From Patescibacteria group bacterium (lineage in GTDB: Bacteria; Patescibacteriota; Patescibacteriia; JACRDY01): a DNA stretch of 64,000 nt. Below the pieces are notes generated by a model. It ran no database searches. It saw only the letters and a list, made by a program, of their open reading frames with translations, and was not told where the DNA came from. The stretch is taken from contig JBAZBH010000005.1 of NCBI GenBank assembly GCA_041671565.1, positions 3,083-67,082 of the forward strand. The letters are read 5' to 3'. Below are positions 3,490 to 63,207 of the stretch, one piece after another (within the stretch, counting starts at the first letter, position 1; each line of letters opens with the position of its first letter). The translations under genes and the position numbers were made by a program.

Positions 3490-3885
3490 ATGAAATTTTC
3501 CACCAAAAGCAGTTACGGCCTGCGGGCGATGATTCAGCTGGCGCGGCACTACCGCGGCGGCAGTTTGTCGCTGGGTGAGATTTCCCGCCGGGAAAAGATT
3601 TCTCTTGGTTATCTGGAGAAAATTATGGCGAGCCTGAAAAGCGCCAAACTGGTTGACAGCGCGGCGGGGATTAAAGGCGGTTATATGCTGACCGAATCAC
3701 CCGCAAAAATTTCCATTAAAGAAATCTTTGAAGCGTTGGAAGGTAGCGTCACGCCTTTTGCCTGCGCCGAAGCGGAAAGCTTTTGTACGGCCAAAGATTG
3801 TGGCGCGCGGCTGGTCTGGCAAAAGCTTAACCAAGCGATCAAAAAAACTTTAAAGCAAATAACTTTAGCTGAAATTATTAAATAA
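3490..3885 (+). CDS. iscR: Rrf2-family transcriptional regulator (IscR-like, Fe-S cluster-binding)
   Basis: N-terminal Rrf2 HTH (MKFSTKSSYGLRAMIQLA), C-terminal cysteine cluster CAEAESFCTAKDC, immediately upstream of iscU and the cysteine desulfurase. Confidence 0.75.
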   Translation: MKFSTKSSYGLRAMIQLARHYRGGSLSLGEISRREKISLGYLEKIMASLKSAKLVDSAAGIKGGYMLTESPAKISIKEIFEALEGSVTPFACAEAESFCTAKDCGARLVWQKLNQAIKKTLKQITLAEIIK

Positions 3886-3893
3886 TATTATAT

Positions 3894-4292
3894 ATGTTAT
3901 ACAACAAAACCATCATGGACCACTTTTTGCACCCGCGGAATATGGGCGTGATCAAAAAGCCCGACGGGTTGGGCGAAGCCGGCAATCCGGTTTGCGGCGA
4001 TATCATGAAGCTGTATTTGAAAATCAAAAAACAGGGGAAAAAAGAAATTATTGCGGAGGTGAAGTTTGAAACTCTCGGTTGCGCGACAGCGATTGCCAAC
4101 TCTTCGGTCTTAACCGAGATGATTAAGGGTCGGGAAATTAAAGACGCGCTAGCAATCAGCTGTCAGGATATTATCAAAAAACTCGGCGGCGATGTGCCGA
4201 AGATCAAGATTCACTGTTCGTTTCTGGCGCAAGAGGCGTTGAAGAAGGCGGTGGAGAACTATCATAAAAACACAAGAACATTAAAACATTAA
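3894..4292 (+). CDS. iscU: Fe-S cluster assembly scaffold IscU/NifU-like
   Basis: HPRNMG...AGNPVCGD...LGCATAIANSS...IKIHCSFLA, the three conserved Cys of IscU/SufU scaffolds. Confidence 0.85.
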   Translation: MLYNKTIMDHFLHPRNMGVIKKPDGLGEAGNPVCGDIMKLYLKIKKQGKKEIIAEVKFETLGCATAIANSSVLTEMIKGREIKDALAISCQDIIKKLGGDVPKIKIHCSFLAQEALKKAVENYHKNTRTLKH

Positions 4293-4308
4293 AACAAAAG
4301 AACAAGCT

Positions 4309-7516: not shown

Positions 7517-8587
7517 ATGATTGGTTTTTTTGCCATCAAAATTGCCGTTTTGACGACACTGGGGTTCGCGGTGGCGCTCCTTTGGACGCCGCTCTTGACC
7601 CATTTTTTGTATAAATATAAATGTTGGAAAAAAACCGTCCGCACCACAGCGCCGGACGGCGCCGGCACGCCGATATTTAACCAACTGCACCAGCACAAGG
7701 AAACCAATGTGCCGCGGATGGGCGGGCTATTAATTTGGGTGACGACTTTATTTTTGGCTTTTATTTTTTTGATCTTTTGCCCGATTTTCAGCACTTGTTC
7801 TTGGCTCCAGAGCTTAAGCTTTCTCAACCGCGCCGAGACTTGGCTGCCGCTGTTCACTCTGGTCAGCGCTTCACTGATTGGCCTCCTTGATGACATTTTG
7901 GTGGTGCGGGGTTTTGGCGAGAAGGGCAAAGGCGGGGGAATCCGCTTTCGCCATCGTTTGCTGCTCGTTTCGTTGATCGGTTTAATCGGCGGTTGGTGGT
8001 TTTACTTCAAATTGGATTGGGACTCAATCCATATCTTGTTTGATGGCTCGCTGGCGCTCGGTTGGCTGTTTATCCCATTTTTTATTTTGGTGATGATCGC
8101 GATGTTCAGTACCAGCGTGACTGACGGACTGGACGGCCTGGCCGGCGGGTTGTTTATGATTATGTTCGTCGCTTATGGCGCGATTGCTTTTGCCGGCGGC
8201 AAGGTTGACTTGGCGGCTTTTTGCGGCGTGATTGCGGGCACCCTGGCGGCTTTTCTCTGGTTTAATATTCCGCCGGCCAGATTTTATATGACCGAAACAG
8301 GAATTTTGGGTCTCACCACCACTCTCGCGGTTGTGGCTTTTCTGACCAACGCGGTTTTACTTTTGCCAATTATCGCCTTCGTGCCGCTGGCCGAATCCGG
8401 CTCGGTGATTATTCAGCTCTTGTCCAAAAAATTTCGAGGCAAAAAAGTCTTCCTCTCTTCACCCTTGCACCATCACTTGGAGGCCAAGGGCTGGCCCGAA
8501 GCCAAAGTGGTGATGCGGTTTTGGCTGATTGGCGGGGTGACCGCTATTATTGGCGTGGCGCTGTTTCTTCTAGACAAGACTTTTTAG
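7517..8587 (+). CDS. mraY: phospho-N-acetylmuramoyl-pentapeptide transferase MraY
   Basis: Polytopic membrane protein with MraY motifs LIGLLDDILVV and STSVTDGLDGLAGG. Confidence 0.8.
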   Translation: MIGFFAIKIAVLTTLGFAVALLWTPLLTHFLYKYKCWKKTVRTTAPDGAGTPIFNQLHQHKETNVPRMGGLLIWVTTLFLAFIFLIFCPIFSTCSWLQSLSFLNRAETWLPLFTLVSASLIGLLDDILVVRGFGEKGKGGGIRFRHRLLLVSLIGLIGGWWFYFKLDWDSIHILFDGSLALGWLFIPFFILVMIAMFSTSVTDGLDGLAGGLFMIMFVAYGAIAFAGGKVDLAAFCGVIAGTLAAFLWFNIPPARFYMTETGILGLTTTLAVVAFLTNAVLLLPIIAFVPLAESGSVIIQLLSKKFRGKKVFLSSPLHHHLEAKGWPEAKVVMRFWLIGGVTAIIGVALFLLDKTF

Positions 8588-8595
8588 AATTATAT

Positions 8596-11500
8596 ATGAA
8601 TGAAGAATTTACTAAAAATTATTTAAATCGGATAATAGAAACCCATAAAAGCGGTCAGGCGACCGAGCATTCTTATCGTCCGGCACTTCAGGAATTGTTT
8701 GAAAAAGTTACGGCTTTAAGAGTTCATAACGAACCAAAACGGAGCGAATACGGCGCGCCGGATTTTGTTTTTGTCAACAAAAAGATTATAGTCGCTTACG
8801 CTGAAGCTAAGGATATTAATGTTTCTCTTAATGAAATAGAAAAGAGCGAGCAAATGATCCGTTATTATGGTTATACTAATATCATTTTAACCAATTCTTT
8901 GGAATTCAGATTTTATAAAAGCGGCCAAAAGTTTTATGAGCCGATAAAAATTGCCGAATTAAAATCAGGAGAAATTATTGCAGTTGAAGAAAATTTTAAG
9001 TTATTAGATGATTCCATAAAAGATTTTATCAGCGAGGCTAATGAGCCGATAAAATCCGGCGCGGTTTTGGCTAAAGTGATGGCGGGTAAGGCCCGCCGTA
9101 TTCGGGATAACATCAAGAAATTTTTAAAAGAAGGCAATACGCCGGCAAATGAAAGCTTGCTGTCCGTGTATAATGTTATTAAAAGATTACTCTTGGCTGA
9201 TTTGGATCATGATAAATTCGCTGATATGTACGCCCAGACGGTGGTTTATGGTTTATTTGTGGCGCGTTATAACGACGATACCCCTGATACTTTTTCCCGC
9301 CAAGAGGCGCGCGATTTGGTGCCGAGGTCAAATCCATTTTTACGCAAATTTTTTGATCATATTGCCGGGGAGGATTTTGACAAACGGATAGAGTTTATTG
9401 TTAGCGAACTTTGCGAGGAATTTATTCATGCCGATGTAAAGGCGATCGTCCACGATTATTATAAAGTGGAAAAGGATGACAGTCGCGACCCGATTATTCA
9501 TTTTTATGAAGATTTCTTGCAGGAGTATGACGCGGCCGAACGCAAAAAAATGGGAGTTTTTTATACTCCGTTGCCGGTGGTGCGGTTTATTGTGCGGGCG
9601 ATTGATGATGTGCTTAAAAAAGAGTTTGGTTTAAAGGGCTTAGCTGATACTTCTAAAGTGGAAATTCAGGGTGTCAGCCAGGGCAAGAAATATAAACAAA
9701 GCGTCCATAAAGTTCAGATACTTGATCCGGCCACTGGCACCGGTACATTCCTTAACGAAGTAATTGAGTATATTGAAAAATCATTCACCGGTCAGAAAGG
9801 CCGTTGGGTCAGTTATGCCCAGGAGGATCTGTTGCCCCGCCTTCACGGGTTTGAAATTATGATGGCCTCATACACCATCGCCCATCTTAAACTTTCCACC
9901 ACGCTTAAGGAGGGCGGAGTGGATATGGGCAAGGGGCGATTAGGCGTGTATTTGACCAATAGCTTAGAAAAAGCTGAAAGCTATGACAATACTCTTTTTG
10001 CCGGTTTGGGATTGGGTCAGGCAATCACCGATGAATCAGTTGCGGCCAATAAAGTCAAAAACGATCTGCCGATAATGGTGATATTAGGAAATCCGCCCTA
10101 TAATGTCAGTTCGCAGAATAAAGGCGAATGGATTGGCGAGTTGATAAAAGATTATAAGAAGGATTTAGGTGAAAGAAAGATTAACTTGGATGACGATTAT
10201 ATTAAATTTATTCGTTTTTCGCAGTATTTAATAGATAAAAACGGTGAAGGAATTATTGGCATGATTACCAATAATTCATACATAGACGGCATTACCCATC
10301 GGCAGATGCGCAAAACCCTTTTAGAGTCATTTGACTGTATTTATGTTTTAGATTTACACGGCAATGCCAAGAAAAAAGAAACCGCGCCCGACGGTGGTGT
10401 CGATCAGAATGTATTTAGTATTATGCAAGGCGTATCTATTACGATTTTTGTCAAAAAAGCCGGCAAGAAAAAAGCCCTCGGCGCGGTTTATCATGCTGAA
10501 TTATTTGGCAAACAAAAGGATAAATATGAGGCGTTGAACAACGCGACTATAGAAAAAATAAAATGGAAGAAGCTTGACTATAAAGAGCCTTATTATTTTT
10601 TTGTACCTAAAGATTTTAGTTCGCAAGAAGATTATGATAATGGTTTCTTAATAACAGATCTTTTTGATATTTATTCAGCTGGGATAAAAACAAAAGTTGA
10701 TGATATAGCAACTGATTTTAGCAGAAATATTTTATTTGACAGAATAAATAAAATTTTAACAAATAAGCCGTCGTTAAAAGAGCTTATTACTCAATATAAT
10801 CTAGGGACAAATACCACATGGGAATACGAAAAGGCGAGCAGGGCAATTTTTGATGAGTCAAAAATAAGAAATTTTTCATATAGGCCATTTGATTATAGAT
10901 TTGTATATTTTGATCACGATTTTTTATCTAGAAGTAGAAAGAAGGTTATGGAACACATCGTGAAGGATAATTTAGCACTATCTTTTATTCACCAAGGAAG
11001 AAATAAGGGAGTAGAAGCTCTAATTACAAAAGAAGTAACTTGTGAAGATTTTATTACAAACCATACTTTTACGGCTCCACTTTATCTTTACGATGGAAAA
11101 ATAAAAATGGGTGCCTCGGGAACTATTGAGGCCGAAAGAGTGCCAAATCTAAATTTGTTGATTGCAAGAAAGATCGCAGAATGCGTTGAGATGGTTTACT
11201 ACCCGGTTGCGGAATATGAAACTATTAAACCAGACAAGCGTCTTACTCCAGAGAACATCTTAGATTATATTTACGCGGTTTTATATTCTCCAAGTTATCG
11301 CGAGAAATATAAGGAGTTTTTGAAGATTGATTTTCCGCGCGTGCCATATCCCAAAGATGAAAAACAGTTTTTTGCGTTGGCTAGATTGGGCGAGGAATTG
11401 CGTCATCTGCATTTATTGGAAAGTCCGAAAGTTGATAATCCTATTACCACTTATCTAATAGCGGGCGATAATTTAGTTGAAAAAGTTAATTATCAAGATG

Positions 11501-11727
11501 GCAAGGTTTATATCAATAAAACCCAGTATTTTGTCGGAGTACCAGAAGAAGTTTGGAATTTTTATATTGGCGGCTATCAGCCGGCGCAAAAATGGCTTAA
11601 AGACCGCAAAGGCAGAAATCTTGCCAGTGAAGATATTGAACATTATCAAAAAATGATTGTTTCTATTTTTGAAACAATAAGAATTATGAAGGAGATTGAT
11701 CAAATTGTTGAAAAAAATAGTAAATAA
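8596..11727 (+). CDS. Type IIL/IIG restriction-modification enzyme, MmeI family (fused PD-ExK endonuclease, N6-adenine methyltransferase and TRD)
   Basis: N-terminal nuclease motif GAPDFVFVNKKIIVAYAEAK (D..E.K), MTase motif I ILDPATGTGTFL, motif IV ILGNPPYNVSS, total 1043 aa. Start taken at the ATG at 8596 because the track start 8521 overlaps mraY. Confidence 0.8.
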   Translation: MNEEFTKNYLNRIIETHKSGQATEHSYRPALQELFEKVTALRVHNEPKRSEYGAPDFVFVNKKIIVAYAEAKDINVSLNEIEKSEQMIRYYGYTNIILTNSLEFRFYKSGQKFYEPIKIAELKSGEIIAVEENFKLLDDSIKDFISEANEPIKSGAVLAKVMAGKARRIRDNIKKFLKEGNTPANESLLSVYNVIKRLLLADLDHDKFADMYAQTVVYGLFVARYNDDTPDTFSRQEARDLVPRSNPFLRKFFDHIAGEDFDKRIEFIVSELCEEFIHADVKAIVHDYYKVEKDDSRDPIIHFYEDFLQEYDAAERKKMGVFYTPLPVVRFIVRAIDDVLKKEFGLKGLADTSKVEIQGVSQGKKYKQSVHKVQILDPATGTGTFLNEVIEYIEKSFTGQKGRWVSYAQEDLLPRLHGFEIMMASYTIAHLKLSTTLKEGGVDMGKGRLGVYLTNSLEKAESYDNTLFAGLGLGQAITDESVAANKVKNDLPIMVILGNPPYNVSSQNKGEWIGELIKDYKKDLGERKINLDDDYIKFIRFSQYLIDKNGEGIIGMITNNSYIDGITHRQMRKTLLESFDCIYVLDLHGNAKKKETAPDGGVDQNVFSIMQGVSITIFVKKAGKKKALGAVYHAELFGKQKDKYEALNNATIEKIKWKKLDYKEPYYFFVPKDFSSQEDYDNGFLITDLFDIYSAGIKTKVDDIATDFSRNILFDRINKILTNKPSLKELITQYNLGTNTTWEYEKASRAIFDESKIRNFSYRPFDYRFVYFDHDFLSRSRKKVMEHIVKDNLALSFIHQGRNKGVEALITKEVTCEDFITNHTFTAPLYLYDGKIKMGASGTIEAERVPNLNLLIARKIAECVEMVYYPVAEYETIKPDKRLTPENILDYIYAVLYSPSYREKYKEFLKIDFPRVPYPKDEKQFFALARLGEELRHLHLLESPKVDNPITTYLIAGDNLVEKVNYQDGKVYINKTQYFVGVPEEVWNFYIGGYQPAQKWLKDRKGRNLASEDIEHYQKMIVSIFETIRIMKEIDQIVEKNSK

Positions 11728-11754
11728 AACCCGTTGACTAAAAAAATTATCTAT

Positions 11755-12147
11755 ATGATAAATAAAAATAGAATGGGCGAAATAAGTTTGATAATAGTTC
11801 TTATAGTTTTTGCTGGGCTATTTTTTTGGGCTAAACAATATTGGATCACCTTTCTAGCCTTGGTCATAACTTTAGTTGGTTGGCGCGTAGAAGATGTTTT
11901 ATATTTTTCTGTTACTAAGGAAGGAATTAAGGTTAAACTATCAGCATTACGGAAAGAATTTGAAACAACATTACGTTCAGATAAATCAATAGACGAAAAA
12001 GTAAAGGCATCGCAAGAATTAATTGATGAGGCCTTTCGCGCGGGCTATCAAATTGCCGGCGGTAAAAAAGTTGTTGGAACAATTAATAATGTAAAAATAT
12101 GGGGAAGCAAGGATGGTAATAAAAATATTCAGTATGATGAAACTTAA
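11755..12147 (+). CDS. hypothetical 2-TM membrane protein in the defence island
   Basis: Track ORF 11734..12147 begins at a TTG inside a TTGACT -35-like box; the first ATG is at 11755 (alternative 11773); 2 TM plus a soluble C-terminal domain; no motif. Confidence 0.35.
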   Translation: MINKNRMGEISLIIVLIVFAGLFFWAKQYWITFLALVITLVGWRVEDVLYFSVTKEGIKVKLSALRKEFETTLRSDKSIDEKVKASQELIDEAFRAGYQIAGGKKVVGTINNVKIWGSKDGNKNIQYDET

Positions 12148-12164
12148 TAAAAATTAATTAATAG

Positions 12165-12248
12165 TTGGTCAGCAAAAAAATAGACGAGGAAGTCTATCAG
12201 CTTTATGGTTTGACCGAGGAGGAGATAAAGGTGGTGGAGGGAAATTAA
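12165..12248 (+). pseudogene. orphan C-terminal fragment of an N6-adenine RM methyltransferase/type IIG enzyme (TaqI_C-like tail ...KKIDEEVYQLYGLTEEEIKVVEGN*)
   Basis: A 27-codon open frame ending in the characteristic ..VYxLYGLTEEEIxxVEG C-terminus of type IIG/gamma-class MTases; a stop sits immediately upstream in frame; the upstream MmeI-like ORF ends ...EIDQIVEKNSK, i.e. at a homologous IDxxV position. Confidence 0.5.
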
Positions 12249-12255
12249 TTGGATA

Positions 12256-12290
12256 AGAAAAGAACGAGTCGCGGTCTCGTTCTTTTATAT
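12256..12290. terminator. bidirectional rho-independent terminator hairpin between convergent genes
   Basis: AAGAACGAG-tcgcggt-CTCGTTCTT followed by TTTT on the plus strand and A-run on the other. Confidence 0.6.
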
Positions 12291-12668
12291 ATCTTGTTTT
12301 TTTAAATATTCTTTTAAACTTCGCGTGTAATCGTTATATTTGTCTTTTTTGCGGTGTCCTTCGTCGCGGAAACCTAACTCTTTTCGTTTTTCTATAAAAT
12401 CAAGATTAATTGCGCATTCAGCCAAATCAAGAAAATAAACTATTCTGTATCCGCCGCTTTTGCCTTTATTGCTATCTGGGTTGGGGATTCCGGCCGACCA
12501 GGCTTCGTAGCGATTTTTTGGCGATCGATAGACGAGTTTTTGACGCGGCAACTCGCAACGGCTCACTGTTGGCGCCCATAGTTTAATAGCATCTCGCACG
12601 GTAATTGAAATCCCATTTTTTTCGCACAGGCGCACAAATTGTTCTCGCTCAATATAAATCCAGGCCAT
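12285..12668 (-). CDS. HigB-2 / RelE-like toxin (PF06296-type) of a type II toxin-antitoxin pair
   Basis: Motif NKGKSGGYRIVYFLD matches the HigB-2 signature KGKGKRGGSRIIYYFLD; 12-nt spacing after the upstream antitoxin stop. Confidence 0.6.
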   Translation of the reverse strand: MAWIYIEREQFVRLCEKNGISITVRDAIKLWAPTVSRCELPRQKLVYRSPKNRYEAWSAGIPNPDSNKGKSGGYRIVYFLDLAECAINLDFIEKRKELGFRDEGHRKKDKYNDYTRSLKEYLKKQDI

Positions 12669-12680
12669 AGATGTGACAAC

Positions 12681-13181
12681 TTACCGAAAAAAATCAATGT
12701 CGCGCGCATAAGCGTAATCAACGACTTCATACGGTTTTGAATAGAACCAAGGCGCTTCAAGGTGCGTTTGGGCAACGATTTTTTCGGTCGGCCAATTTCC
12801 GAATTCGTCACAAATTTGTTTGAGTAATTTTTTTTGATTGACGGAGAAAACAGATTCATCAAAATTTTTTACATCTTTAATCTCAAAACTAATCATTTCG
12901 CCGTCCATATAATTGACTGATTTAGTATCAATTGCTCCTTCAGTTTTAAGTTTAGAAAGAATTTCATCAATTCGTGATGGTACGGGACCATAGCCCTGAT
13001 GTATATACACATCGCCAGTAACTGTTTTTTTATGATCACGAAAATATATAAAATCAAGATAATACAAAAGTTTATTTAGCTTTGTAGCATGTAAATACTG
13101 ATTATTACAGTATTTAATAAAATATAGGACGGCGTTATTGTAAACTCGCTCGTCAATTGCAGGGCAGATAGCTTTGACCAT
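12681..13181 (-). CDS. Panacea-domain (DUF4065, SocA-like) antitoxin
   Basis: KLNKLLYYLDFIYF...IHQGYGPVPSRI matches the Panacea signature (KLxKLLYY ... YGPV). The track gives a TTG start at 13223 that lies inside a TTGACA promoter box; the ATG at 13181 is preferred. Confidence 0.55.
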   Translation of the reverse strand: MVKAICPAIDERVYNNAVLYFIKYCNNQYLHATKLNKLLYYLDFIYFRDHKKTVTGDVYIHQGYGPVPSRIDEILSKLKTEGAIDTKSVNYMDGEMISFEIKDVKNFDESVFSVNQKKLLKQICDEFGNWPTEKIVAQTHLEAPWFYSKPYEVVDYAYARDIDFFR

Positions 13182-13258
13182 ATTGTTATCTGCATAATAA
13201 CATAAATAAGTATTTTTACGCAATTAAATCTTGTCAAGAATTAAGCTGTGTAAAACTT

Positions 13259-13288
13259 ATTGACAAAGCTTTGTTATCGGCGCTATAA
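13259..13288 (+). promoter_or_regulatory. promoter of the lexA-like/mazF operon (TTGACA-18-TATAAT) with an overlapping TTGTCAA...TTGACAA inverted repeat (candidate operator)
   Basis: TTGACA 13259..13264, TATAAT 13283..13288; cTTGTCAAg at about 13230 and TTGACAAa at 13259 form an inverted repeat. Confidence 0.45.
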
Positions 13289-13322
13289 TTGGGTAATAAG
13301 GCAGTACAATAAATAATGATAT

Positions 13323-14069
13323 ATGCATTTAATCCAAGAAAAATTGTTAAATTTAGCTAAAAATAATAATTTAACTGATTTAACATTAAGGAAAATAGGG
13401 GAATTAATCGGCGAACCGAATAGTCCCCAAAAAATAAAGCATCATTTGGATAAATTGATTGCCAAGGGTCTTCTGTTGGTCGGCGCTGACGGCAAGGCGT
13501 TAAAAGTCGCTGCTAGCGGCCTAGATGAAAAATCAAAGTTAGTTTCTTTGCCAATCGTTGGTTCGGCCAATTGCGGCGAGGCGCTGATTTGCGCCGATCA
13601 AATAGTTGAGGGTTACCTAAAAATATCTTTAAAAATTTTGGGTGATCAATTTAAAAATAGGCTAAAGGATCTATTTATTTTGCGCGCGGTGGGGAGCTCA
13701 ATGAATCGGGCAAATGTGAAAGATAAAAGCATCGAAGACGGAGACTTTGTGGTAGTCGAAAAGAATCAAGGAATTCCAGTTAGCGGCGAGTATGTGGTAT
13801 CGATAATTGATAATATGGCGAATATAAAAAAGTTTTTAGTTGATAAAAAAAACAGACAAATTGTTTTAATATCTGAATCAAATTTTAATATCCCTCCGAT
13901 CTATATACATGAGGATGATCTTTCTAATTATTTAGTTTGCGGCAAAGTGGTTGATGTTATCAAAAAACCGGATGAGCTTCTGTTCGCCAGAGACGAATCA
14001 GCCAAAGACATTTTGAAAACTATTGGTCCTATTTCCAGGGAAGACTATAATTATTATGAAAAATTATGA
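13323..14069 (+). CDS. LexA-like repressor (winged-HTH plus S24 self-cleaving peptidase) with a ~45-aa acidic C-terminal extension
   Basis: Aligns over the whole length to LexA: DNA-binding N-terminus, hinge LPIVGSANCGEA (LexA VAAGEP cleavage region), Ser in LRAVGSSMNRANVKD...DGDFVVV, Lys in ANIKKFLV; extra C-terminal tail DELLFARDESAKDILKTIGPISREDYNYYEKL. Confidence 0.8.
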   Translation: MHLIQEKLLNLAKNNNLTDLTLRKIGELIGEPNSPQKIKHHLDKLIAKGLLLVGADGKALKVAASGLDEKSKLVSLPIVGSANCGEALICADQIVEGYLKISLKILGDQFKNRLKDLFILRAVGSSMNRANVKDKSIEDGDFVVVEKNQGIPVSGEYVVSIIDNMANIKKFLVDKKNRQIVLISESNFNIPPIYIHEDDLSNYLVCGKVVDVIKKPDELLFARDESAKDILKTIGPISREDYNYYEKL

Positions 14070-14419
14070 TTAAAAAAGGCGATCTCGAGTTTGGCGATAT
14101 AGTCTGGACGGAGTTTGATCCTAGTGTTGGGCATGAGTATCAAAATAAAAGACCGGCTATAGTTATCCAATCCAATGAACAATTAAATAAATCTAATCTG
14201 GTAACAGTGATGCCGCTTACAACTCAAGCAGGCAATGTTACGGGAGATGATATTATAATTCCAACCGACCAAGATAATAGGTTGAGGGCGGATTCCGTCG
14301 CTAAGGTCTATTGTATAACTTCATTTGATTATAGTCGTTTTTCTAAAAAAATAGGTAAGGTTAATGCCAAATTGATTATTGCCCTGAAGGAGTATTTAAA
14401 AAAGCATTTTGATCTTTGA
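14066..14419 (+). CDS. mazF: MazF/PemK-family endoribonuclease toxin
   Basis: KKGDLEFGDIVWTEFDPSVGHEYQNKRPAIVIQSN matches the MazF/PemK core (GDIv..dFdP..GhEq...RPalVl); ATGA start/stop overlap with the lexA-like gene. Confidence 0.8.
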   Translation: MIKKGDLEFGDIVWTEFDPSVGHEYQNKRPAIVIQSNEQLNKSNLVTVMPLTTQAGNVTGDDIIIPTDQDNRLRADSVAKVYCITSFDYSRFSKKIGKVNAKLIIALKEYLKKHFDL

Positions 14420-14584: not shown

Positions 14585-15979
14585 ATGAATGCTTTGGGCT
14601 TAAAAAATAAAAAAGTTCTAGTGATGGGGCTCGGCCTCCACGGCGGGGGGCTGGGCGTGACCAAGTGGCTAATCAAACAAGGCGCGCGGGTGACGGTGAC
14701 TGACTTGAAAACTAAAGAACAGCTGAAAGCTACCCTCCGAGAACTTAAAAGTCTGCCCATCAAATATGTTTTAGGCCGCCATCAGCCGGCCGATTTTAAA
14801 AATGCCGATTTGGTGATCCAAAATCCCGGTGTGCCGAGCGAATCGCCGTTTTTAAAAATTGCCAATAAAGCCGGCGTGCCAGTGGTAACCGACATGAGTT
14901 TGTTTTTTGAGCGTTGTCCGGCGCCGATTATTGGTATTACCGGCACTAAGGGTAAAACCACCACCACGACTTTAATCGGCAAGATTTTTCAGTCTGCCGG
15001 TAAAAAGCCGATTGTCGCCGGCAATATCCGAGTTTCGCCTTTGGATTTTTTGAATAAAATCAAGAAAAATTCCAGTGTGATTCTGGAGCTGTCGTCTTGG
15101 CAACTGGAAGGCCTCGCGCCGCTTAAAATCAGCCCGCAGATTGCTTTGATTACTAATCTTTCGCCCGATCACCTGAACCGCTATCGGTCACTTGGGGATT
15201 ACATTAAAGCCAAAACCCTCATTTTCAAATTTCAGCAGCCGGAAGACATTTGTATTTTAAACCGCGATAATCAAGCCAGTCGTCAGCTCGCGAAGTTGGT
15301 GCCCAGCCGGCTATTCTGGTTTTCCAAAAAGTATTTTACTAGCGGGAACGGCGGGTTTATTAAAGATGGTTGGCTGCGATTCCGTTCGGGAAATAAAACA
15401 GTTAAAGTGATTAAAACTTCGGCGGTCAAAATTCCCGGGGAACATAATTTAGAAAATATTTTAGCGGCGCTATCGTTGGCGCTAGTGGCCGGTGTTTCAT
15501 TGGCGGCGGTTCGGCAAGCGATAAAGCAGTTTACCGGCGTCAGCGACCGGCTGGAGTTAATTAAAACCGTTAAAGGTGTCAGCTATTATAATGACACGAC
15601 AGCGACCGCGCCGACAGCCGCGATCCAGGCTTTAAAAACTTTGGGCGGGCAAAAGAAAAATATAGTTCTCCTTGCCGGCGGGGCGGACAAGAAATTAGAA
15701 TTTGGCGAATTTGCCCAAGCGATAAAAAAATACGCCAAAGCCGTGGTGCTCTTTCGCGGGTCGGCGAGCGTTAAACTTAAAAAAGAATTGTTAAAATTAA
15801 ACTACTGGGTCATGACGGAAGTCGGGAGTATGCCGGCCGCGGTCAGCGCCGCGCAAAAATTGGCGCGAGCGGGCGAAATTATTTTACTCTCGCCGGGCGC
15901 GGCCAGTTTCGGGCTGTTTATTAATGAGTTTGATCGGGGAGAACAATTCAAAAATATCATTAAAGTATTAAAACATTAA
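14585..15979 (+). CDS. murD: UDP-N-acetylmuramoylalanine--D-glutamate ligase MurD
   Basis: N-terminal VLVMGLGLHGGGLGVTKWL Rossmann, Mur ligase GITGTKGKTTTT P-loop, 464 aa. Confidence 0.9.
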   Translation: MNALGLKNKKVLVMGLGLHGGGLGVTKWLIKQGARVTVTDLKTKEQLKATLRELKSLPIKYVLGRHQPADFKNADLVIQNPGVPSESPFLKIANKAGVPVVTDMSLFFERCPAPIIGITGTKGKTTTTTLIGKIFQSAGKKPIVAGNIRVSPLDFLNKIKKNSSVILELSSWQLEGLAPLKISPQIALITNLSPDHLNRYRSLGDYIKAKTLIFKFQQPEDICILNRDNQASRQLAKLVPSRLFWFSKKYFTSGNGGFIKDGWLRFRSGNKTVKVIKTSAVKIPGEHNLENILAALSLALVAGVSLAAVRQAIKQFTGVSDRLELIKTVKGVSYYNDTTATAPTAAIQALKTLGGQKKNIVLLAGGADKKLEFGEFAQAIKKYAKAVVLFRGSASVKLKKELLKLNYWVMTEVGSMPAAVSAAQKLARAGEIILLSPGAASFGLFINEFDRGEQFKNIIKVLKH

Positions 15980-16036
15980 AACTTGAAAACCAGGTGTGGC
16001 AAATTTGTTTTAATGTTTTAATGTTTTAATGTTTTT

Positions 16037-17143: not shown

Positions 17144-17149
17144 GGGAGA

Positions 17150-17400
17150 ATCATGAATCAAGAATTAAGAATCAAGAAGGTCGGTAAACGGTGTTTAATC
17201 TTTAAGTCTAGTTAGAATGTCCAATATCCAAATCCCAATGTCCAATCAATGTCCAATGACCAAAGGTGGCTATCCCGAAGCGACCCCGTTGTGGCTTGGA
17301 CATTAGTCATTGGGTCCGCCGAATCGGCGGATGGTCATTGGAGCTTGGACATTGATCATTTATTCTTGATTCATGATTCTTAATTCTTGATTCTATTTTA
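17150..17400. repeat. about 240-nt intergenic imperfect palindrome built from GAATCAAGAAT and CCAATG words
   Basis: atcatgaatcaagaattaagaatcaagaa...tccaatatccaaatcccaatgtccaatcaatgtccaatgacc...ccgccgaatcggcgg...ttcttgattcatgattcttaattcttgattc; the arms are reverse complements. Confidence 0.65.
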
Positions 17401-18497
17401 TGAGAATATTACTGACCGGCGGCGGAACCATGGGCTCAGTCACGCCGCTCCTCGCCACGGCCGAACAATTAAAAACCGATGGCTTAACTGCTGAGTTCCT
17501 TTGGCTGGGGACCAAGGCCGGTCCGGAGCGGGCGGTGGTGGAACTGGCGGGCATCAAATTTCAGCCGATAATCGGTGGCAAATGGCGGCGGTATTTTTCC
17601 CTGCAAAATTTGGCGGCGCCGTTTTTGGTGCTGGCAGGATTTTTCCAAAGTTTAATAATAATTATAAAGTTTAAACCGCAGGTGATTTTAACGGCCGGGG
17701 CGTTTATCTCGGTGCCCGCAGTTTGGGCCGGCCGGTTTTGCCGTGTGCCGGTTTTGGTGCATCAGCAAGATTTAACGCCGGGACTCGCTAACCGGCTAAT
17801 GGCCCCCTTCGCGAGGAAAATCACCGTGGCGCTAGAAGATTCACTGAAAAATTATCCGACGGGCAAGACCAGTTGGATTGGCAATCCGGTGCGAGCGAGT
17901 TTGTTTCAGGGCGATCGGACGGCGGGCTTAAAGAAGTTTAATCTGCAGTCCGGCCGGCCGGTGGTATTAATCGTTGGCGGGGGAACAGGTTCGGTGGTTT
18001 TGAATGAAACAGTTGATCAAGCGTTGCCGGAGTTAGTTGGTTTTTGCCAGGTGATTCATCTAACCGGAATCAAGAATCACCCCAGCAGACGCGGGGCAAG
18101 CGAATTAAGAATCAAGAATCAGGCAGTAAAAGGATATTGTGCCTTTGAATTTTTAACTACGGAAATGAGGGATGCTTTGGCGGCAGCGGATATAGTTGTT
18201 TCTCGGGCAGGTATGGGTTTTTTGAGTGAACTGGCGGCGCTTGGCAAAGCGGTGATTATTGTGCCGATGGCAGACAGCCACCAAGAGGCCAACGCCAGTT
18301 ATTTTGCCCGGCGGAACGCGGCTGTGGTTTTGCCCCAGGCGGATTTGACGCCGGAAAACTTAACTCTAGCCGTTAAAAATCTTTTAGACGGCAAGTCGGA
18401 TAAAGCCAATTTAGAGCGGAATATTAAGTCGTTATTAAAGCCCGGCGCGGCTGAGGCGATGGTTAAGGCGGTGGTGGAGTTGACAAAAGGCCAGTGA
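17400..18497 (+). CDS. murG: UDP-GlcNAc:undecaprenyl-PP-MurNAc-pentapeptide GlcNAc transferase MurG
   Basis: RILLTGGGTMGSVTPLLA N-terminus, GT28 C-terminal domain; contains the in-frame repeat insertion at 18067..18123. Confidence 0.85.
   Translation: MRILLTGGGTMGSVTPLLATAEQLKTDGLTAEFLWLGTKAGPERAVVELAGIKFQPIIGGKWRRYFSLQNLAAPFLVLAGFFQSLIIIIKFKPQVILTAGAFISVPAVWAGRFCRVPVLVHQQDLTPGLANRLMAPFARKITVALEDSLKNYPTGKTSWIGNPVRASLFQGDRTAGLKKFNLQSGRPVVLIVGGGTGSVVLNETVDQALPELVGFCQVIHLTGIKNHPSRRGASELRIKNQAVKGYCAFEFLTTEMRDALAAADIVVSRAGMGFLSELAALGKAVIIVPMADSHQEANASYFARRNAAVVLPQADLTPENLTLAVKNLLDGKSDKANLERNIKSLLKPGAAEAMVKAVVELTKGQ
18067..18123. repeat. about 55-nt repeat element inserted in-frame in murG (core CACCCCAGCAGACGCGGGGCAAGCGAAT flanked by GAATCAAGAATC words)
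   Basis: Near-identical to 55942..55998 inside dnaX and related to 63130..63170 (intergenic); translates in the same frame in both genes (..HPSRRGASE.. / ..HPSIRGASE..). Confidence 0.7.
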
Positions 18498-21386: not shown

Positions 21387-22184
21387 ATGGAAAAAAAATC
21401 AAGGGAAAGGGTGGTTTGGCATTCAGCGATATTCAGTTTAATTCTGTTAATATCGCCGTTTTTGGTTATGGCTGAAGAAGCAGAAACCGCGCCAACGCCG
21501 GCGGCGGAAGTGGAAATTTTCCCGGTTAGCTTAAGCTCTAAAGCGGCGGCGTTAAAGCAGTCAATCGGCCCGGCCAGCGGTTTTCAATTAAGTCTGGGTG
21601 CTAAGACTCTTGGCGCTGAAACAGATATTATCTTCAAAAAGAGGAATATTTTTCCTGAAGAACTAACTTTACCGGACAATAAAGTGGCTCTGAGTCCGCT
21701 CTGGGAATTTGATTTAACCAATAAAAAAGCCTATAACCGCCGCCAGCCTTTGCGCTTGCAGCTAACTTATGAGGCGAGTTTAGCGGCGAAGGGGATTTTT
21801 TTCTGGAACGGCAAAACTTGGCAGGCGCTGCCCAGCCAGATAGTTGACTCAACCAAACGGCTGATCGAAGCGCCGATTTATCTGCCTTACGCTAAAGTAA
21901 TAGTGCTCGGCGACGCGAAGATTATGGGCGAAGGGCAAGCCTCGTGGTATAATTATAAAAAGTGCGACTGCGCCGCTTCACCCGATTATCCCAAAGGCAC
22001 GAAATTAAAAGTGACTAACATCGCGAATGGCAAGTCAGTGGTGGTAAAAGTCAACGACTTCGGTCCGGAGCGGGATATTTTTCCAGCTCGGGCGATTGAT
22101 CTGGATGTGGTGGCTTTTAAGAAAATTGCCAATAAGCGCGCCGGGGTGATCGAGGTGCTGGTGGAGCCGGTGGCGAAGCATTAA
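21387..22184 (+). CDS. RlpA-like double-psi beta-barrel (DPBB) domain protein with signal peptide
   Basis: C-terminal GQASWYNY...GTKLKVTNIANGKSVVVKVNDFGPERDIFPARAIDLDVVAFKKIA resembles the RlpA/expansin DPBB domain; N-terminal signal sequence. Confidence 0.55.
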   Translation: MEKKSRERVVWHSAIFSLILLISPFLVMAEEAETAPTPAAEVEIFPVSLSSKAAALKQSIGPASGFQLSLGAKTLGAETDIIFKKRNIFPEELTLPDNKVALSPLWEFDLTNKKAYNRRQPLRLQLTYEASLAAKGIFFWNGKTWQALPSQIVDSTKRLIEAPIYLPYAKVIVLGDAKIMGEGQASWYNYKKCDCAASPDYPKGTKLKVTNIANGKSVVVKVNDFGPERDIFPARAIDLDVVAFKKIANKRAGVIEVLVEPVAKH

Positions 22185-22270
22185 AACACGAGAACATTAA
22201 AACATTAAAACAAAAAGACACTTTATAGTTAATTGTTTCAATGTTTTAGTATTTTAGTGGCCGAACGAGT

Positions 22271-24004: not shown

Positions 24005-24175
24005 AGTTAAGTTCAAAGTTCAAAACCCTAAGTTCAAATGCCAGCTTTGCTGGCACCCCGCCATGGCGGGGTGATTGCTAAAGCAATCAAGTTCAAAGAT
24101 CAAAAGGTGCCAGAGTTTTGGCCTTTGAACTTGATTTGAACTTTGAACCTTGGATTTTGAACTTTTTGGTTTTTA
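24005..24175. repeat. intergenic word-palindrome (AAGTTCAAA family)
   Basis: aagttcaaagttcaaaaccctaagttcaaatgcc...ggcctttgaacttgatttgaactttgaaccttggattttgaactt; the central hairpin is gcaccccgccatggcggggtg. Confidence 0.6.
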
Positions 24176-29942: not shown

Positions 29943-31034
29943 ATGAAGCGCTGGTTGTTCAAATTTAGAGGTTTTGATTGGGTGCTTGCTCTGAGCGCCT
30001 TTTTATTAGTTTGTTTTGGTTTAGTCGCTATTTACAGTGTGACGCTGTCCGGCGAGGGAGCGAACTGGGATCTTTTGACCAGGCAATTGGTGGCGGTGGC
30101 GCTCGGCCTGGGGCTGTTTTTTGGCCTGGCGTTTTTTGACTATCAACTGCTGCAGAGCTACGCGCGGTGGCTTTACGGCTTTGGCTTACTGATTTTAACC
30201 GCGGTGCTGATTTTTGGTTCCAGTTTGCGTGGAACCAAGGGCTGGTTTGTAATCGGTGGCTGGAGTTTTCAGCCGGTGGAGGTGGTTAAAATCGTGGTAA
30301 TTATATTTTTAGCGTATTACTTTTCCCGCCAAAGCCGGCCGCTTAATCAATTAAAATATTTTATTATCAGCGGCCTTGGGGTTTTGGCGGCGTTTGCTTT
30401 AACAATCTTACAACCGGATTTCGGCTCGGGTTTGATCCTCTTTTTTCTCTGGCTGGGTGTGGTTTTGGTTATCGGTCCGCGGTGGTGGCACTTAGCGTTA
30501 CTTTTGGTCGCGGGACTAGCGGTTTTTCTACTGGCCTGGAACTTCGCTTTTGCGCCTTACCAAAAAGACCGCATCCGGACATTTCTCGATCCGGCGGCTG
30601 ACCCGCTGGGCGCCGGTTACAATGTCAGCCAGTCAATGATCGCCATTGGCGCCGGCGGTTGGACCGGCCAAGGTTTATCGCTCGGCTCGCAGTCGCAACT
30701 GCGGTTTTTGCCCGAAGCCCAGACCGACTTTGTCTTTGCGGTCATTGCCGAGGAGCTCGGTTTACTCGGCGTGTTACTGCTTCTCGGGCTGTGGTCGCTG
30801 ATTTTTTGGCGGCTATTTGTGATTGCCCGGCGGTGTCATGACGATTTTTCACTTTTTTTAATTTTGGGAATAATCCTTTTGTTTCTCATTCATCTCTTGA
30901 TGAATATCGGCATGAACCTAGGTTTGGCGCCGGTGACTGGCATTACTTTGCCCCTCGTCAGCTACGGCGGCAGTTCGTTGATTTTTATGCTGGGGGCGAT
31001 CGGGATAGCGGAAAGCGTTCGATTAAGGAATTAA
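29943..31034 (+). CDS. rodA: FtsW/RodA/SpoVE family protein (second SEDS paralogue, probable RodA)
   Basis: 10-TM SEDS protein with conserved C-terminal GGSSLI...G motif region; not located in the dcw cluster. Confidence 0.75.
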   Translation: MKRWLFKFRGFDWVLALSAFLLVCFGLVAIYSVTLSGEGANWDLLTRQLVAVALGLGLFFGLAFFDYQLLQSYARWLYGFGLLILTAVLIFGSSLRGTKGWFVIGGWSFQPVEVVKIVVIIFLAYYFSRQSRPLNQLKYFIISGLGVLAAFALTILQPDFGSGLILFFLWLGVVLVIGPRWWHLALLLVAGLAVFLLAWNFAFAPYQKDRIRTFLDPAADPLGAGYNVSQSMIAIGAGGWTGQGLSLGSQSQLRFLPEAQTDFVFAVIAEELGLLGVLLLLGLWSLIFWRLFVIARRCHDDFSLFLILGIILLFLIHLLMNIGMNLGLAPVTGITLPLVSYGGSSLIFMLGAIGIAESVRLRN

Positions 31035-31171
31035 TAATTAAAAATTAATAATTAAGAATTGAAGTCAAAAGTCAAAATTCAAAAGGCAAAAGTACATGTC
31101 AAAAGTAAAAAGTTTGACTATAGACATTCAAAATACTATAATAGAGTTATAAATATTAGCCAGATCAATAT

Positions 31172-33535: not shown

Positions 33536-33690
33536 ATTAAGATTTTAACAATTTTTAATTTAAAATTTCTAATTTTTAATCAATTTTTAAGGCTTAATTT
33601 TTAATTTTAAATCTAACGCCGGATTACCGGCGTTTTAAAATTAGAAATTAATAATTCATTAAAAATTTTAAATTAAAAATTAAAAATTGC
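33536..33690. repeat. AT-rich word-palindrome element (AAAATTAAAAATT words) with central GC hairpin; homologous copy at 56487..56632
   Basis: ...aatttttaatttaaaatttctaatttttaat...aacgccggattaccggcgtt...ttagaaattaataattcattaaaaattttaaattaaaaattg shares long segments with the 56.5-kb copy. Confidence 0.55.
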
Positions 33691-54633: not shown

Positions 54634-54635
54634 CA

Positions 54636-54786
54636 AAAGATTTAAGATTTAGGATTTAAGATTTAAGAATGGTCGGTAATCAGAGTTTAGACTAATAAAC
54701 CAAACTGAAAGTTCAAAATCTAAAGAATTAAGGTAATTCAAAACGGAGTTTATTCTTAAATCTTAAATCCTAAATCTTAAATCTCT
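54636..54786. repeat. intergenic word-palindrome (ATTTAAGATTT family)
   Basis: gatttaagatttaggatttaagatttaagaa ... ttcttaaatcttaaatcctaaatcttaaatc. Confidence 0.6.
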
Positions 54787-54839
54787 TCTAATTTTCACCT
54801 CTTTTATTCTTACCCAAATAATGCTAAGATTTCCTCATT

Positions 54840-56486
54840 ATGACCGTCAGCCTTTACCGCCAATATCGGCCGCAAACCTTTGCCGAAGTGGTGGGCCAAA
54901 ACCAAATCAAGGTGACACTGCAGAACGAAATTAAGCAGGGCAAAATCGCCCAGGCTTATTTGTTTTCTGGCCCGCGCGGCATTGGCAAAACCACCACCGC
55001 CCGATTGATGGCCAAAGCAGCCAACTGCGAAAAAAGAAAAGCGGGCGAGTCCGAGCCTTGCAACCATTGTGCCGCTTGCGAGGAGATCACCGGCGGTTCC
55101 AGCCTGGATGTTTTGGAGATTGATGCCGCCTCGCACACCGGCGTTGATAATGTCCGCGCCAATATCATTGAAAGCGCGCGCTTTGCGCCCAGCCGGCTGA
55201 AGAATAAAGTTTATATTATTGACGAAGTCCACATGCTTTCGACCGCGGCGTTTAACGCGCTCCTAAAAACTTTGGAAGAGCCACCGGCGAATGTGATTTT
55301 TATCCTTTGCACCACTGAGAGCCATAAACTTCCGCTGACGATTATTTCCCGTTGCCAGCGGTTTGATTTTCGCCGGGTGGCGTTTGGCGAAGTGGTGGAC
55401 CATTTGGCTTTCATCTGCCGCGAGGAAGGCGTCAGTTGCGACAAAGAAGTTTTGCAGAATATCGCCCGGCATTCTGAAGGTTATTTGCGCGACGCCGTGG
55501 GCCTTTGCGGCCAGTTGCTGTCGCTCGGTGAGAAGAAAATCACCTGGGAACAGGCGCAACTAGTGATGCCGCGGTCGAATTTTCTCTTAGTGGCGGAATT
55601 TTTGGAATATCTGGTTAACCGCGACACCGAGAAAGCTTTGCGCCTGGTTAACCGTTTGGTTGATGAAGGCGTTAACCTGAGCCAGTTTGTTCTGGACACG
55701 GTGGAGTTTTTACGGAAGCTTCTTTTAACCAAGGTTTCCGGCCGGCTGGACGAGTTCACTTTAGAATTAGATGAGGCGGGTGGCAAGAAATTAACCGCGA
55801 TTTTAGGGAGCCTGAGTTTAAGTGAGATCGCGTCTTGGGCTAATATCTTTATTAGCAAGAATCAGGCAATCAAACAGAGCGCCATTCCGCAGTTGCCGCT
55901 GGAATTGGCGGTGGTGGAGATTTGCGGAGAAACGGAAAATACAGAATCAAGAATCATGAAGCACCCCAGCATACGCGGGGCAAGCGAATCAAGAGTAGAA
56001 AGCCAGAAGGCAGAAATCAGAAAAGAGAAATTAGAAATAGGAAATACGAAACCTAGTACGCCGTCATCAGTAGTTAGTAATCAGCCAAAAATAGAAGTTC
56101 AGCCAACACCCAGTAAAAAAGGCGGCAAAGGCGCGGTCAAACTGGAAGAAGTGGAGGCTAAATGGGGTGAGTTTATCGCCAGCTTGAATGACAGCAACCA
56201 TTCTTTGTCGATGACGCTTCATGTTGGCCGGCCGCTAGCGGTGGACGGCGACACCGTGCGAGTGGGCTTTAAATACAAATTTCACAAGGAAATGATGGCT
56301 GAAAGCAAGAATCGGTTGACATTGTCCGAGGGTTTAAGTAAGATAATGGGCGTTAAACTCCTAGTTGAGCCGATAGTTGCTGAAAACTTAGTTTTCGATT
56401 CCAGTTCTAAGCCCAGCCCGGAAGCGCCGAGTGGCACGGGCGTCGCCGATGTGGCGAAAATGTTTGGGGGAAAAGTGATGGGGTAA
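54840..56486 (+). CDS. dnaX: DNA polymerase III subunit gamma/tau
   Basis: AAA+ clamp-loader motifs GPRGIGKTTTARLMAKAANC, Zn module CNHCAAC, DEVHML, SRC; contains the in-frame repeat at 55942..55998 and AGAAA-word repeats. Confidence 0.85.
   Translation: MTVSLYRQYRPQTFAEVVGQNQIKVTLQNEIKQGKIAQAYLFSGPRGIGKTTTARLMAKAANCEKRKAGESEPCNHCAACEEITGGSSLDVLEIDAASHTGVDNVRANIIESARFAPSRLKNKVYIIDEVHMLSTAAFNALLKTLEEPPANVIFILCTTESHKLPLTIISRCQRFDFRRVAFGEVVDHLAFICREEGVSCDKEVLQNIARHSEGYLRDAVGLCGQLLSLGEKKITWEQAQLVMPRSNFLLVAEFLEYLVNRDTEKALRLVNRLVDEGVNLSQFVLDTVEFLRKLLLTKVSGRLDEFTLELDEAGGKKLTAILGSLSLSEIASWANIFISKNQAIKQSAIPQLPLELAVVEICGETENTESRIMKHPSIRGASESRVESQKAEIRKEKLEIGNTKPSTPSSVVSNQPKIEVQPTPSKKGGKGAVKLEEVEAKWGEFIASLNDSNHSLSMTLHVGRPLAVDGDTVRVGFKYKFHKEMMAESKNRLTLSEGLSKIMGVKLLVEPIVAENLVFDSSSKPSPEAPSGTGVADVAKMFGGKVMG
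55942..55998. repeat. in-frame copy of the about 55-nt repeat element inside dnaX
   Basis: cagaatcaagaatcatgaagCACCCCAGCATACGCGGGGCAAGCGAATcaagagtag, near-identical to 18067..18123 in murG, same reading frame (..MKHPSIRGASESRVES..). Confidence 0.7.
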
Positions 56487-56632
56487 AAAATAATTTTTAA
56501 TTTTTAATTTAAAATTTCTAATCAATTTATAATTCTTAATTTTTAATTACCACGAACTTGGCTTTAGGTTTAAAAATTATAAATTAAACATTAGAAATTC
56601 ATTAAAAATTAAGAATTTTAAATTAAAAATTG
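56487..56632. repeat. AT-rich word-palindrome element, homologous to 33536..33690
   Basis: aatttttaatttttaatttaaaatttctaatcaa...aaattaaacattagaaattcattaaaaattaagaattttaaattaaaaattg. Confidence 0.55.
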
Positions 56633-56640
56633 TTGTTTAT

Positions 56641-59053: not shown

Positions 59054-59094
59054 GAATTAGGATTTAAGATTTAAGAATGTCAATTACCGGCGTC

Positions 59095-62782: not shown

Positions 62783-63040
62783 ATGATAACTAAGTGCCAA
62801 TTTTGCCAAAAGGAGTTTAAAATTATTACTCAGGAAGAGGCGTTTTATAGTAAGGCCGGTTTGCCTTTGCCGACGGCTTGCCCGGACTGCCGGCGGGAGC
62901 GGCGGCTGAAATTCAAGAATCCCCGCCAGCTGAATAAGCGGGCTTGCGCCAAGTGCGGCGCGGAAGTGATTACCACTTATCCGGCGGATTTTTTGCCTCC
63001 GGTTTATTGTTCCAAGTGCTTTGAAGAAAATTTCAACTAA
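62783..63040 (+). CDS. hypothetical zinc-ribbon protein (4 CxxC pairs)
   Basis: CQFCQ...CPDCRRE...CAKCGAE...CSKCFEE. Confidence 0.35.
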   Translation: MITKCQFCQKEFKIITQEEAFYSKAGLPLPTACPDCRRERRLKFKNPRQLNKRACAKCGAEVITTYPADFLPPVYCSKCFEENFN

Positions 63041-63207
63041 TGCCAATTATGCTAATTATTTGCTAGTATTTACTGATAATTCACGGAATTAGATTTATTC
63101 ATCTAACTGGAAGCGATGCGAATGCTACGAATTACCCCAGCATACGCGGGGCAGGCATGCGAATCTACGAATAATAAGGGATTTAATTAGCACAATTGGT
63201 AACTAAT

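Follow-up and report, generated by a model that had tools for sequence, protein, structure and literature searches.

A 21-nt hairpin module lying in frame within murG and dnaX of a Patescibacteria genome, a probable non-autonomous micro-repeat

The murG and dnaX genes of a Patescibacteria group bacterium each carry, within the coding sequence, a copy of one and the same 21-nt hairpin module, and a third copy lies between genes. All three are found in a single stretch of 64,000 nt (assembly GCA_041671565.1, contig JBAZBH010000005.1, positions 3,083 to 67,082 of the forward strand), which is referred to as the window and which sets the numbering used here. The module is probably a non-autonomous micro-repeat, coming and going as a single block of exactly 21 nt, and it would have landed here three times in arrays of short tandem words. 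Two of these arrays are coding: one encodes a loop on the surface of the C-domain of MurG, the other the DnaX linker that joins domain III to the C-terminal domain.

Three copies of a hairpin module in one window

The repeat was recognised by its 19-nt core, CCCCAGCAKACGCGGGGCA, which together with two further nucleotides makes up the full module. The core occurs three times in the window, always on the + strand (18080-18098, 55964-55982 and 63135-63153), where 0.05 occurrences are expected, and none of 100 shuffles reaches three. An earlier note, made from the letters of this DNA alone, had described a repeat of about 55 nt lying in frame in murG, with a near-identical copy in dnaX and a related intergenic copy near 63130..63170. 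The core-repeat observation is confirmed at all three sites. Upon alignment the murG and dnaX copies are identical at 40 of 44 positions over GAATCA.GAA.CA-core-AGCGAAT.AAGA (repeat family D14), both open reading frames (ORFs) are intact, and the two copies share their codon phase, giving the peptides HPSRRGAS in MurG and HPSIRGAS in DnaX. The common repeat is indeed in frame in both genes, but its unit is 21 nt and not 55 nt.

The murG ORF (17400..18497, + strand, 365 aa) has both the N and the C domain of the Pfam family Glyco_transf_28, and array and module together encode residues ~224-241. On the left stand the heptamer words GAATCAA GAATCA (18067..18079), the second of them broken after its sixth base; then follows the module itself (18080..18100, CCCCAGCAGACGCGGGGCAAG), which adds PSRRGAS and splits a codon, CA|C, that is rebuilt; and on the right (18101..18122) a C, which finishes the word GAATCAC, precedes GAATTAA GAATCAA GAATCAG, of which Tandem Repeats Finder (TRF) reports 18102-18121. 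In the dnaX ORF (54840..56486, + strand, 548 aa) the module (55964..55984, CCCCAGCATACGCGGGGCAAG) lies near residue 375, within the linker that joins domain III (end at ~363) to the Pfam domain DnaX_C (start at 433). It adds PSIRGAS, with the words GAATCAA GAATCAT GAAGCA on its left (55944..55963). On its right (55985..56038) a C is followed by GAATCAA GAGTAGA and a decaying period-7 stretch that is also part of the linker and includes four units of CAGAAAT (TRF 56011-56038). The third module (63135..63155, + strand, CCCCAGCATACGCGGGGCAGG) stands after an ORF that ends at 63040 and before the gene that follows, and is flanked by words of 8-9 nt (63113..63176), namely GCGATGC GAATGCTAC GAATTA on one side and CATGC GAATCTAC GAATAA on the other.

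All copies have the layout CCCC-A-GC, a 4-nt loop and GC-GGGG, followed by CA and two more nucleotides. The hairpin that the earlier note suspected, CCCC(A)GC-N4-GCGGGG, appears in all predicted folds; the local folds of the three window copies with their flanks are unremarkable (z -2.0 to +0.3). Judging from MurG homologues, nearly all of which are from Patescibacteria, the host belongs to that group; its nearest non-self homologue is 61% identical. The insertions are also found elsewhere: a second assembly (an ENA contig) encodes an identical DnaX including the insertion, and a MurG fragment from a Logan contig (P0001) is 100% identical across the insert. An assembly artefact is unlikely because two independent assemblies, ENA (dnaX) and Logan (murG), carry the insertions as well.

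The unit is 21 nt long and has sharp boundaries

The exact core was searched in the GTDB representative genomes and in JGI metagenome contigs, which yielded 98 places on low-GC contigs, or 69 non-redundant contexts. Conservation across these contexts ends at position -1 (A in 57%) on one side and at +3 on the other, and the flanks beyond are unrelated. When segments of 17-25 nt are excised from murG and dnaX, the surrounding words fall back into their 7-nt register only if 21 nt are removed, with five of seven straddling matches against 0-3 for the others. After this excision murG reads GAATCAA GAATCAC GAATTAA GAATCAA GAATCAG and dnaX reads GAATCAA GAATCAT GAAGCAC GAATCAA.

Occupied and empty sites give the same length. 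The MoaA gene P0271, from a metagenome-assembled genome (MAG) labelled Chlamydiota, contains the core, and its 87%-identical orthologue P0272 does not; their DNA differs by two gaps of 21 nt each, of which the first is the core module (GCGTGCCCCGCGTATGCTGGG) and the second, CGAAGACCGGCGAATGCTGGT (ACCAGCATTCGCCGGTCTTCG), is a variant in the same hairpin family. In a third orthologue, P0277, the site is fully empty. In eight pairs of paralogous composites, the members that have the core and those that lack it differ in length by 20-22 nt, mostly by 21, and in L098 a composite homologous to the one around the window's intergenic copy is without exactly CCCCAGCATACGCGGGGCAGG. The junctions of the compared sites have no target duplication and at most a 1-nt ambiguity (C).

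The moaA gene also has an insertion hot spot, located after RFLELMPNK (L010 6450-6650; L123, L124 and L125), where orthologues that are 74-87% identical carry anything from 0 to ~45 extra residues. The extra DNA consists of nested small GC hairpin modules, for example CCCCCTTTGAAGGGGG and GCCCGAAGGGC, in addition to both 21-nt modules.

Going by these sequence comparisons, the repeated unit is the 21-nt module and not the ~55-nt element of the earlier note, and the GAATCAA words on either side are probably tandem heptamer arrays that pre-existed as the target, outside the element. The words are assigned to the target because the murG array of the nearest relative, L121, has no core and because L122, a more distant relative, has ordinary codons at this place. 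It is instead conceivable that words, core and words move together as a composite of ~55 nt, a unit resembling a Rickettsia palindromic element (RPE) that brings its GAATCAA words along. Such a composite would account for the flanking words being included in the 40/44 identity, for the interrupted word being alike in murG and dnaX (GAAKCA^C), and for a 16-mer that the murG and intergenic copies have in common further upstream. This 16-mer, ATTCATCTAACCGGAA (= ATTCATCTAACYGGAA), lies at 18054..18069 on the + strand, where it encodes the conserved MurG sequence IHLTG, and it recurs with 15/16 matches at 63097-63112, so that it precedes two of the three module copies in equal phase; its counterpart in the L098 composite is GTCCATCTGGCTGGAA. 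However, the words of the intergenic copy differ from those in the genes, GAATCAA words also form an array without a core at 17147-17178, and the murG loop of L121 likewise holds a heptamer array without one. Moreover, nothing is kept beyond +/-3 nt in the 69 contexts, and the measured indels are of 20-22 nt, mostly 21. A moving unit of 55 nt is therefore improbable. The intergenic copy was also considered as a fragment of a murG pseudogene, and this was rejected, since stop codons stand immediately upstream and the homologue in L098 is a composite that is not murG.

The coding copies occupy permissive protein segments

When 20 Patescibacteria MurG sequences are aligned, the conserved motifs IHxTG and YxxxEFL enclose a stretch of 11 to 22 residues, of which the window protein has the longest version, and none of the homologues contains HPSRRGAS. 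The DnaX linker ranges from ~15 to ~100 residues among 16 homologues and has no conservation. Neither segment has conserved residues across it in orthologues, which is what an insertion predicts. The AlphaFold model of MurG is confident overall (mean predicted local distance difference test score, pLDDT, 88; predicted template modelling score, pTM, 0.86), and its sole segment with pLDDT <50, residues 225-240, is exactly the peptide encoded by the repeat, held between two confidently modelled strands. The solved MurG structures 3s2u, 7d1i and 1f0k give no more than a loose alignment at this segment. The earlier note had surmised that a short loop is added, and the peptide is indeed a low-confidence loop in MurG and a linker in DnaX. 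The equivalent murG loop of L121, whose MurG is the 61%-identical homologue, is encoded by a clean array of six RGAAATC words. In L121 (946-1047 and 1386-1600) this loop array is accompanied by the same palindrome of TTGGTCA/TTGGACA words between murG and a tRNA gene, so that at 61% protein identity the word arrays stand in matching positions.

Since 21 = 3 x 7, neither the reading frame nor the 7-nt array register is disturbed by the module. By inspection it is stop-free in all six frames, and GAATCAA is stop-free in the three sense frames. Because the module keeps the frame and has no stop, it adds to the protein seven tolerated residues of a disordered loop, PSRRGAS or PSIRGAS. The peptide would then be a passenger and not a selected motif.

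The converse, that HPSxRGAS is a protein motif under selection, convergent or transferred, with the nucleotide identity following from it, has in its favour the equal frame of the murG and dnaX copies and their similar hydrophilic peptides. The coding copies in other genomes speak differently: they are found in all three frames and both orientations in genes for MoaA, the SecA tail, the NusG N-terminus, the C-termini of GAPDH and TruB, and a glycosyltransferase, where they are read as PSIRGA, PAYAGQ, PQHTRGR, CPAYAG, LAPRMLG and VPRVCWG. Because the module DNA is read in every frame and orientation in other genes, no selection for a particular peptide is apparent. The third window copy is intergenic, the nucleotide identity of 91% exceeds what a seven-residue motif imposes, and no orthologue carries the MurG segment with its pLDDT below 50. 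Equal phase is expected once in three, and it results from both copies having entered an identical word at an identical point. A selected peptide is thus a very remote explanation.

Distribution in other genomes

The exact 19-mer, which is the T variant of the core, is present 36 times in the GTDB representative genomes, where ~4 occurrences are expected for a fully specified 19-mer, and 61 times in the JGI metagenome contigs. The median GC content of its loci is 0.39-0.42; the T variant is ~8-fold above a uniform expectation in low-GC DNA, where rarer occurrence is expected. For the A, C and G variants the GTDB representatives have 4, 1 and 4 occurrences, all at high-GC loci, and these matches, which are at about the chance rate, were set aside as chance.

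Those variants show that chance similarity of GC-rich low-complexity DNA can produce a few matches, and the same doubt may be extended to the whole family by supposing coincidence, misassembly or contamination. Little weight can be given to this: the window holds three copies against the 0.05 expected, the T variant is enriched in DNA of the wrong composition for chance, single MAGs hold up to 12 copies, and the ORFs are open across the module. There is agreement between independent assemblies in ENA, Logan, JGI and NCBI, for which different assemblers were used, and chance or an artefact is barely worth entertaining.

The carriers are labelled by their depositors as Patescibacteria (Moranbacteria, Saccharibacteria and UBA10110), Chlamydiota, Gammaproteobacteria and FCPU426. 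The contigs labelled Chlamydiota encode AccD, MoaA, sulfatases and PPDK, and the relatives of their AccD are named Auribacterota, Verrucomicrobia, Chlamydiota and similar, one of them residing on a 4.04-Mb contig; on account of these AccD relatives, including the one on the large contig, these carriers are not Patescibacteria. The module has consequently spread across unrelated genomes, and the earlier claim that such behaviour is rare outside Rickettsia did not hold up, as the identical module is scattered in MAGs labelled as several phyla and is found inside genes there as well. Among the 44 genome matches there is no cyanobacterial and no Rickettsia record with the core, and viral contigs gave 0 matches. 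A full-text search of the literature for the core sequence and its complement, as DNA and as RNA, returned 0 papers, and nothing relevant was found on repeats in Patescibacteria or Chlamydiae.

The surroundings of the module in other genomes are reminiscent of those in the window. It is often located in the loop of another small hairpin, including its own variants, or inside word arrays, and the core-bearing loci of other organisms share with the window an excess of periods in the order 7 > 8 > 9, which the high-GC chance loci do not have. Direct repeats of at least 7 nt flank 25% of the other copies compared with 5% of controls, and inverted ones 17% compared with 4%. Direct tandem copies occur in L015 (with a 21-nt period), L031 and L101; no inverted doublets were seen in these loci, and the window copies are single.

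Two arrangements deserve mention on their own. In L015, two tandem 21-nt modules (3517-3566) form the C-terminal tail of GAPDH (APAYAGQAPAYAGQAG), and the predicted start of the next ORF reads them in another frame (PSIRGASPSIRGAS). In a Moranbacteria MAG the core is part of a ~100-nt repeat (..tctccgcgag..ggattgccaCCCC..GGGGCAggctgcccgaggacgagctcgcaaagaca..) on several contigs, together with a second variant, aggagttcgCCCCGGCATTCGCGGGGCGaactcct; the loci in question are L008, L017, L028, L035, L064, L093, L096, L097 and L100.

Mobile repeat or selected signal

A short hairpin that recurs letter for letter could also be a selected cis-acting signal, such as a protein-bound RNA or DNA hairpin or a processing or stability site, whose coding copies are incidental or regulatory. 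Several observations are compatible with this. The identical 19-mer is found in 69 unrelated contexts in very distant lineages; most of the variation in the wider family is taken up by the bulge (position 5), position 14 and position 10 in the loop, most stem positions being fixed; and the excess of period-7/8 arrays that carriers have in common suggests one system. On the other hand, the module has no constant position: it is found in both orientations, in all frames, within and between genes, and at N-terminal, C-terminal and mid-gene locations. Its presence or absence differs between orthologues that are 87% identical. Nor do signal searches point to a regulatory RNA: at the gathering threshold Rfam finds only tRNAs in the whole window, at a permissive threshold it returns nothing with E <4 at the module site, and the window-copy folds are ordinary. 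As for an intrinsic terminator, there is no sense-strand U-tract, the sole terminator-like match is antisense and the total is at the shuffle rate. Taken together, a dedicated signal seems unlikely. A resemblance to the hairpin of type I-E CRISPR repeats was considered and dropped as there is no repeat-spacer array.

For the non-autonomous micro-repeat that we favour, mobilisation would take place in trans and at the level of DNA, through an enzyme or process able to recognise the hairpin and having hairpin loops and AT-rich word arrays as its preferred targets. One may guess, and it is a guess only, that the mobiliser is a structure-specific single-strand DNA enzyme of the HUH type, like the REP-associated tyrosine transposases (RAYTs).

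A number of points weigh against this reading. No recurrent neighbouring enzyme emerged from all-against-all clustering of the ORFs of 95 core-bearing loci, which gave duplicates and generic families. No IS200/RAYT-like gene had a significant tblastn match in the 64-kb window and ~0.6 Mb of loci, with an approximate IS200 TnpA query, and Pfam finds no transposase, integrase or reverse-transcriptase domain in the ~53 ORFs of the window. A 21-nt gap cannot say whether the block was inserted or precisely deleted. For murG and dnaX, no relative with an empty site is closer than 61% (MurG) or 49% (DnaX), and since the nearest relatives are this distant, insertion is deduced there from the register of the arrays and the comparison with L121. 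Letter-perfect identity in such distant lineages is unusual for selfish DNA and fits a selected function. The phylum names of the carriers are the depositors', one group, the contigs labelled Chlamydiota, having been checked. Finally, covariation in the hairpin is weak, with one compensatory pair among 26 variants and a score that 10 of 500 shuffles reach.

Relation to known repeats

The module is closest in kind, at the level of descriptions, to the small dispersed repeats (SDRs) of cyanobacteria. In the account of Elhai et al. 2008 (Genome Res 18:1484), SDR4-6 of the Nostocaceae are reportedly non-autonomous hairpins of 21-27 nt, often placed in tandem heptamers, which are said to be present or absent between relatives with precise insertion. 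That work is cited in two later papers (PMC4390886; PMC5861425), and no SDR-like repeat had been found outside Nostocaceae (PMC5861425). The module matches the SDRs in size class (21 nt compared with 21-27 nt), in its predicted hairpin and in being non-autonomous; it is likewise embedded in tandem heptamers or other repeats, and its precise presence or absence without target duplication is seen in MoaA, in the paralogous composites and between L098 and the window. It differs in its hosts, which are Patescibacteria and other non-cyanobacterial MAGs, in having one sequence common to distant lineages with an exact length of 3 x 7, and in recurring in frame inside conserved or essential genes. If it is of the SDR type, the module is at best a new family, no cyanobacterial record having the core.

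RPEs are ~150 bp long, are restricted to Rickettsia and code for a conserved peptide that is specific to the family, and in R. conorii nearly half of the 44 copies lie within ORFs (PMC10969869). The earlier note had proposed an RPE-like selfish repeat in essential genes, and the behaviour does resemble that of RPEs, in so far as a palindromic repeat sits in frame in unrelated housekeeping genes and adds a peptide at permissive sites. The unit, however, is not an RPE: it is 21 nt long, is read in any frame or orientation without one conserved peptide, and is found in other phyla. Membership was rejected on length, conserved peptide and host (Patescibacteria), the comparison being with the description of RPEs and not with their consensus sequences.

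The REP and REPIN sequences are imperfect palindromes of 20-40 nt, present in many copies and non-coding, which are thought to be handled as single-stranded hairpins by RAYT, an IS200-like HUH enzyme. REPs are extragenic and species-specific, and usually form inverted doublets with a RAYT gene alongside. The module is akin to them as a short imperfect palindrome with many copies per genome and no coding capacity, but it occupies single-copy sites, is often intragenic (two of the three window copies) and is common to several lineages. A typical REP was rejected because the module is often intragenic and occurs as single copies; in the 64-kb window and the ~0.6 Mb of loci no RAYT-like gene was seen alongside.

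[quoted passage not shown] The module is, like them, a non-autonomous repeat lying in frame within genes. It was nevertheless rejected as a MITE, being 21 nt long and having neither terminal inverted repeats nor any duplication beyond the 1-nt ambiguity.

To date only one earlier description of mobile-looking elements of ~20 nt could be found, that in Nostocaceae. The same kind of object, which behaves like the smallest class of mobile repeats so far known, now appears, with identical sequence, in the ultra-small genomes of Patescibacteria and in at least one unrelated lineage. Its length of 3 x 7 explains how it can reside harmlessly in murG, dnaX, secA, nusG and moaA, and the clean occupied and empty alleles in close relatives make the mechanism testable. 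The module supplies conserved proteins with new disordered loops, and it stands as a practical warning for the annotation and alignment of proteins from uncultured bacteria.

Word arrays and other features of the window

The window holds 65 tandem arrays, 41 of period 7 and 11 of period 8, which are mostly intergenic and paired into palindromes. The earlier note had linked the GAATCAA words of murG to a palindrome at 17150..17400, and rightly so: the outer arms of this nested intergenic palindrome (17147..17394) are GAATCAA-type heptamer arrays (TRF 17147-17178 and 17362-17394), with no module inside. It folds at -93 kcal/mol (z = -6.2).

Cyanobacteria have tandem heptamers known as short tandemly repeated repetitive (STRR) sequences, such as STRR1, CCCCA(A/G)T, and STRR2, TT(G/T)GTCA. 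The window, with 41 of its 65 arrays of period 7, is similarly rich in heptamers, and its word family TTGGTCA/TTGGACA may correspond to the STRR2 consensus. Unlike the STRRs, the window arrays are found in another phylum, pair up to form long palindromes between genes, and code for protein loops as well.

A broader and rather doubtful proposal is that the module and the period-7 arrays are products of one DNA-level system working in a 7-nt register, in which the module is a 'three-word' cassette. Such a system would write or homogenise short repeats into intergenic palindromes and permissive protein loops, and horizontal transfer would have carried it between Patescibacteria and lineages unrelated to them. 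If true, it would account for both the letter-perfect conservation and the common excess of period 7.

Word arrays of 7-8 nt set in long palindromes are found in nearly every intergenic region of the window (for example 17147-17394, 33547-33689, 54629-54793 and 56484-56639), and the word families differ from one region to the next. Arrays also extend into the 3' ends of ORFs (4277-4296, 15958-15990, 22179-22212, 31029-31060, 59047-59076 and 61314-61364), and several predicted C-termini are array-encoded for this reason. An ORF for a 303-aa membrane-protein-like product (61513-62424, - strand), with no Pfam match, has internal repeats ~190 nt apart (family D13, at 61675, 61864 and 62311). A perfect GC palindrome of 16 nt, CCCCGCCATGGCGGGG, which stands between genes at 24056-24071, ahead of a tRNA gene, may be another hairpin module. 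Lastly, a low-GC island at 8521-14419 (GC 0.34-0.36) splits the cell-wall cluster between an mraY-like gene and murD, and carries genes for a Type ISP restriction-modification enzyme (1068 aa), a SocA/Panacea antitoxin, an S24 peptidase-like protein and a MazF/PemK toxin.

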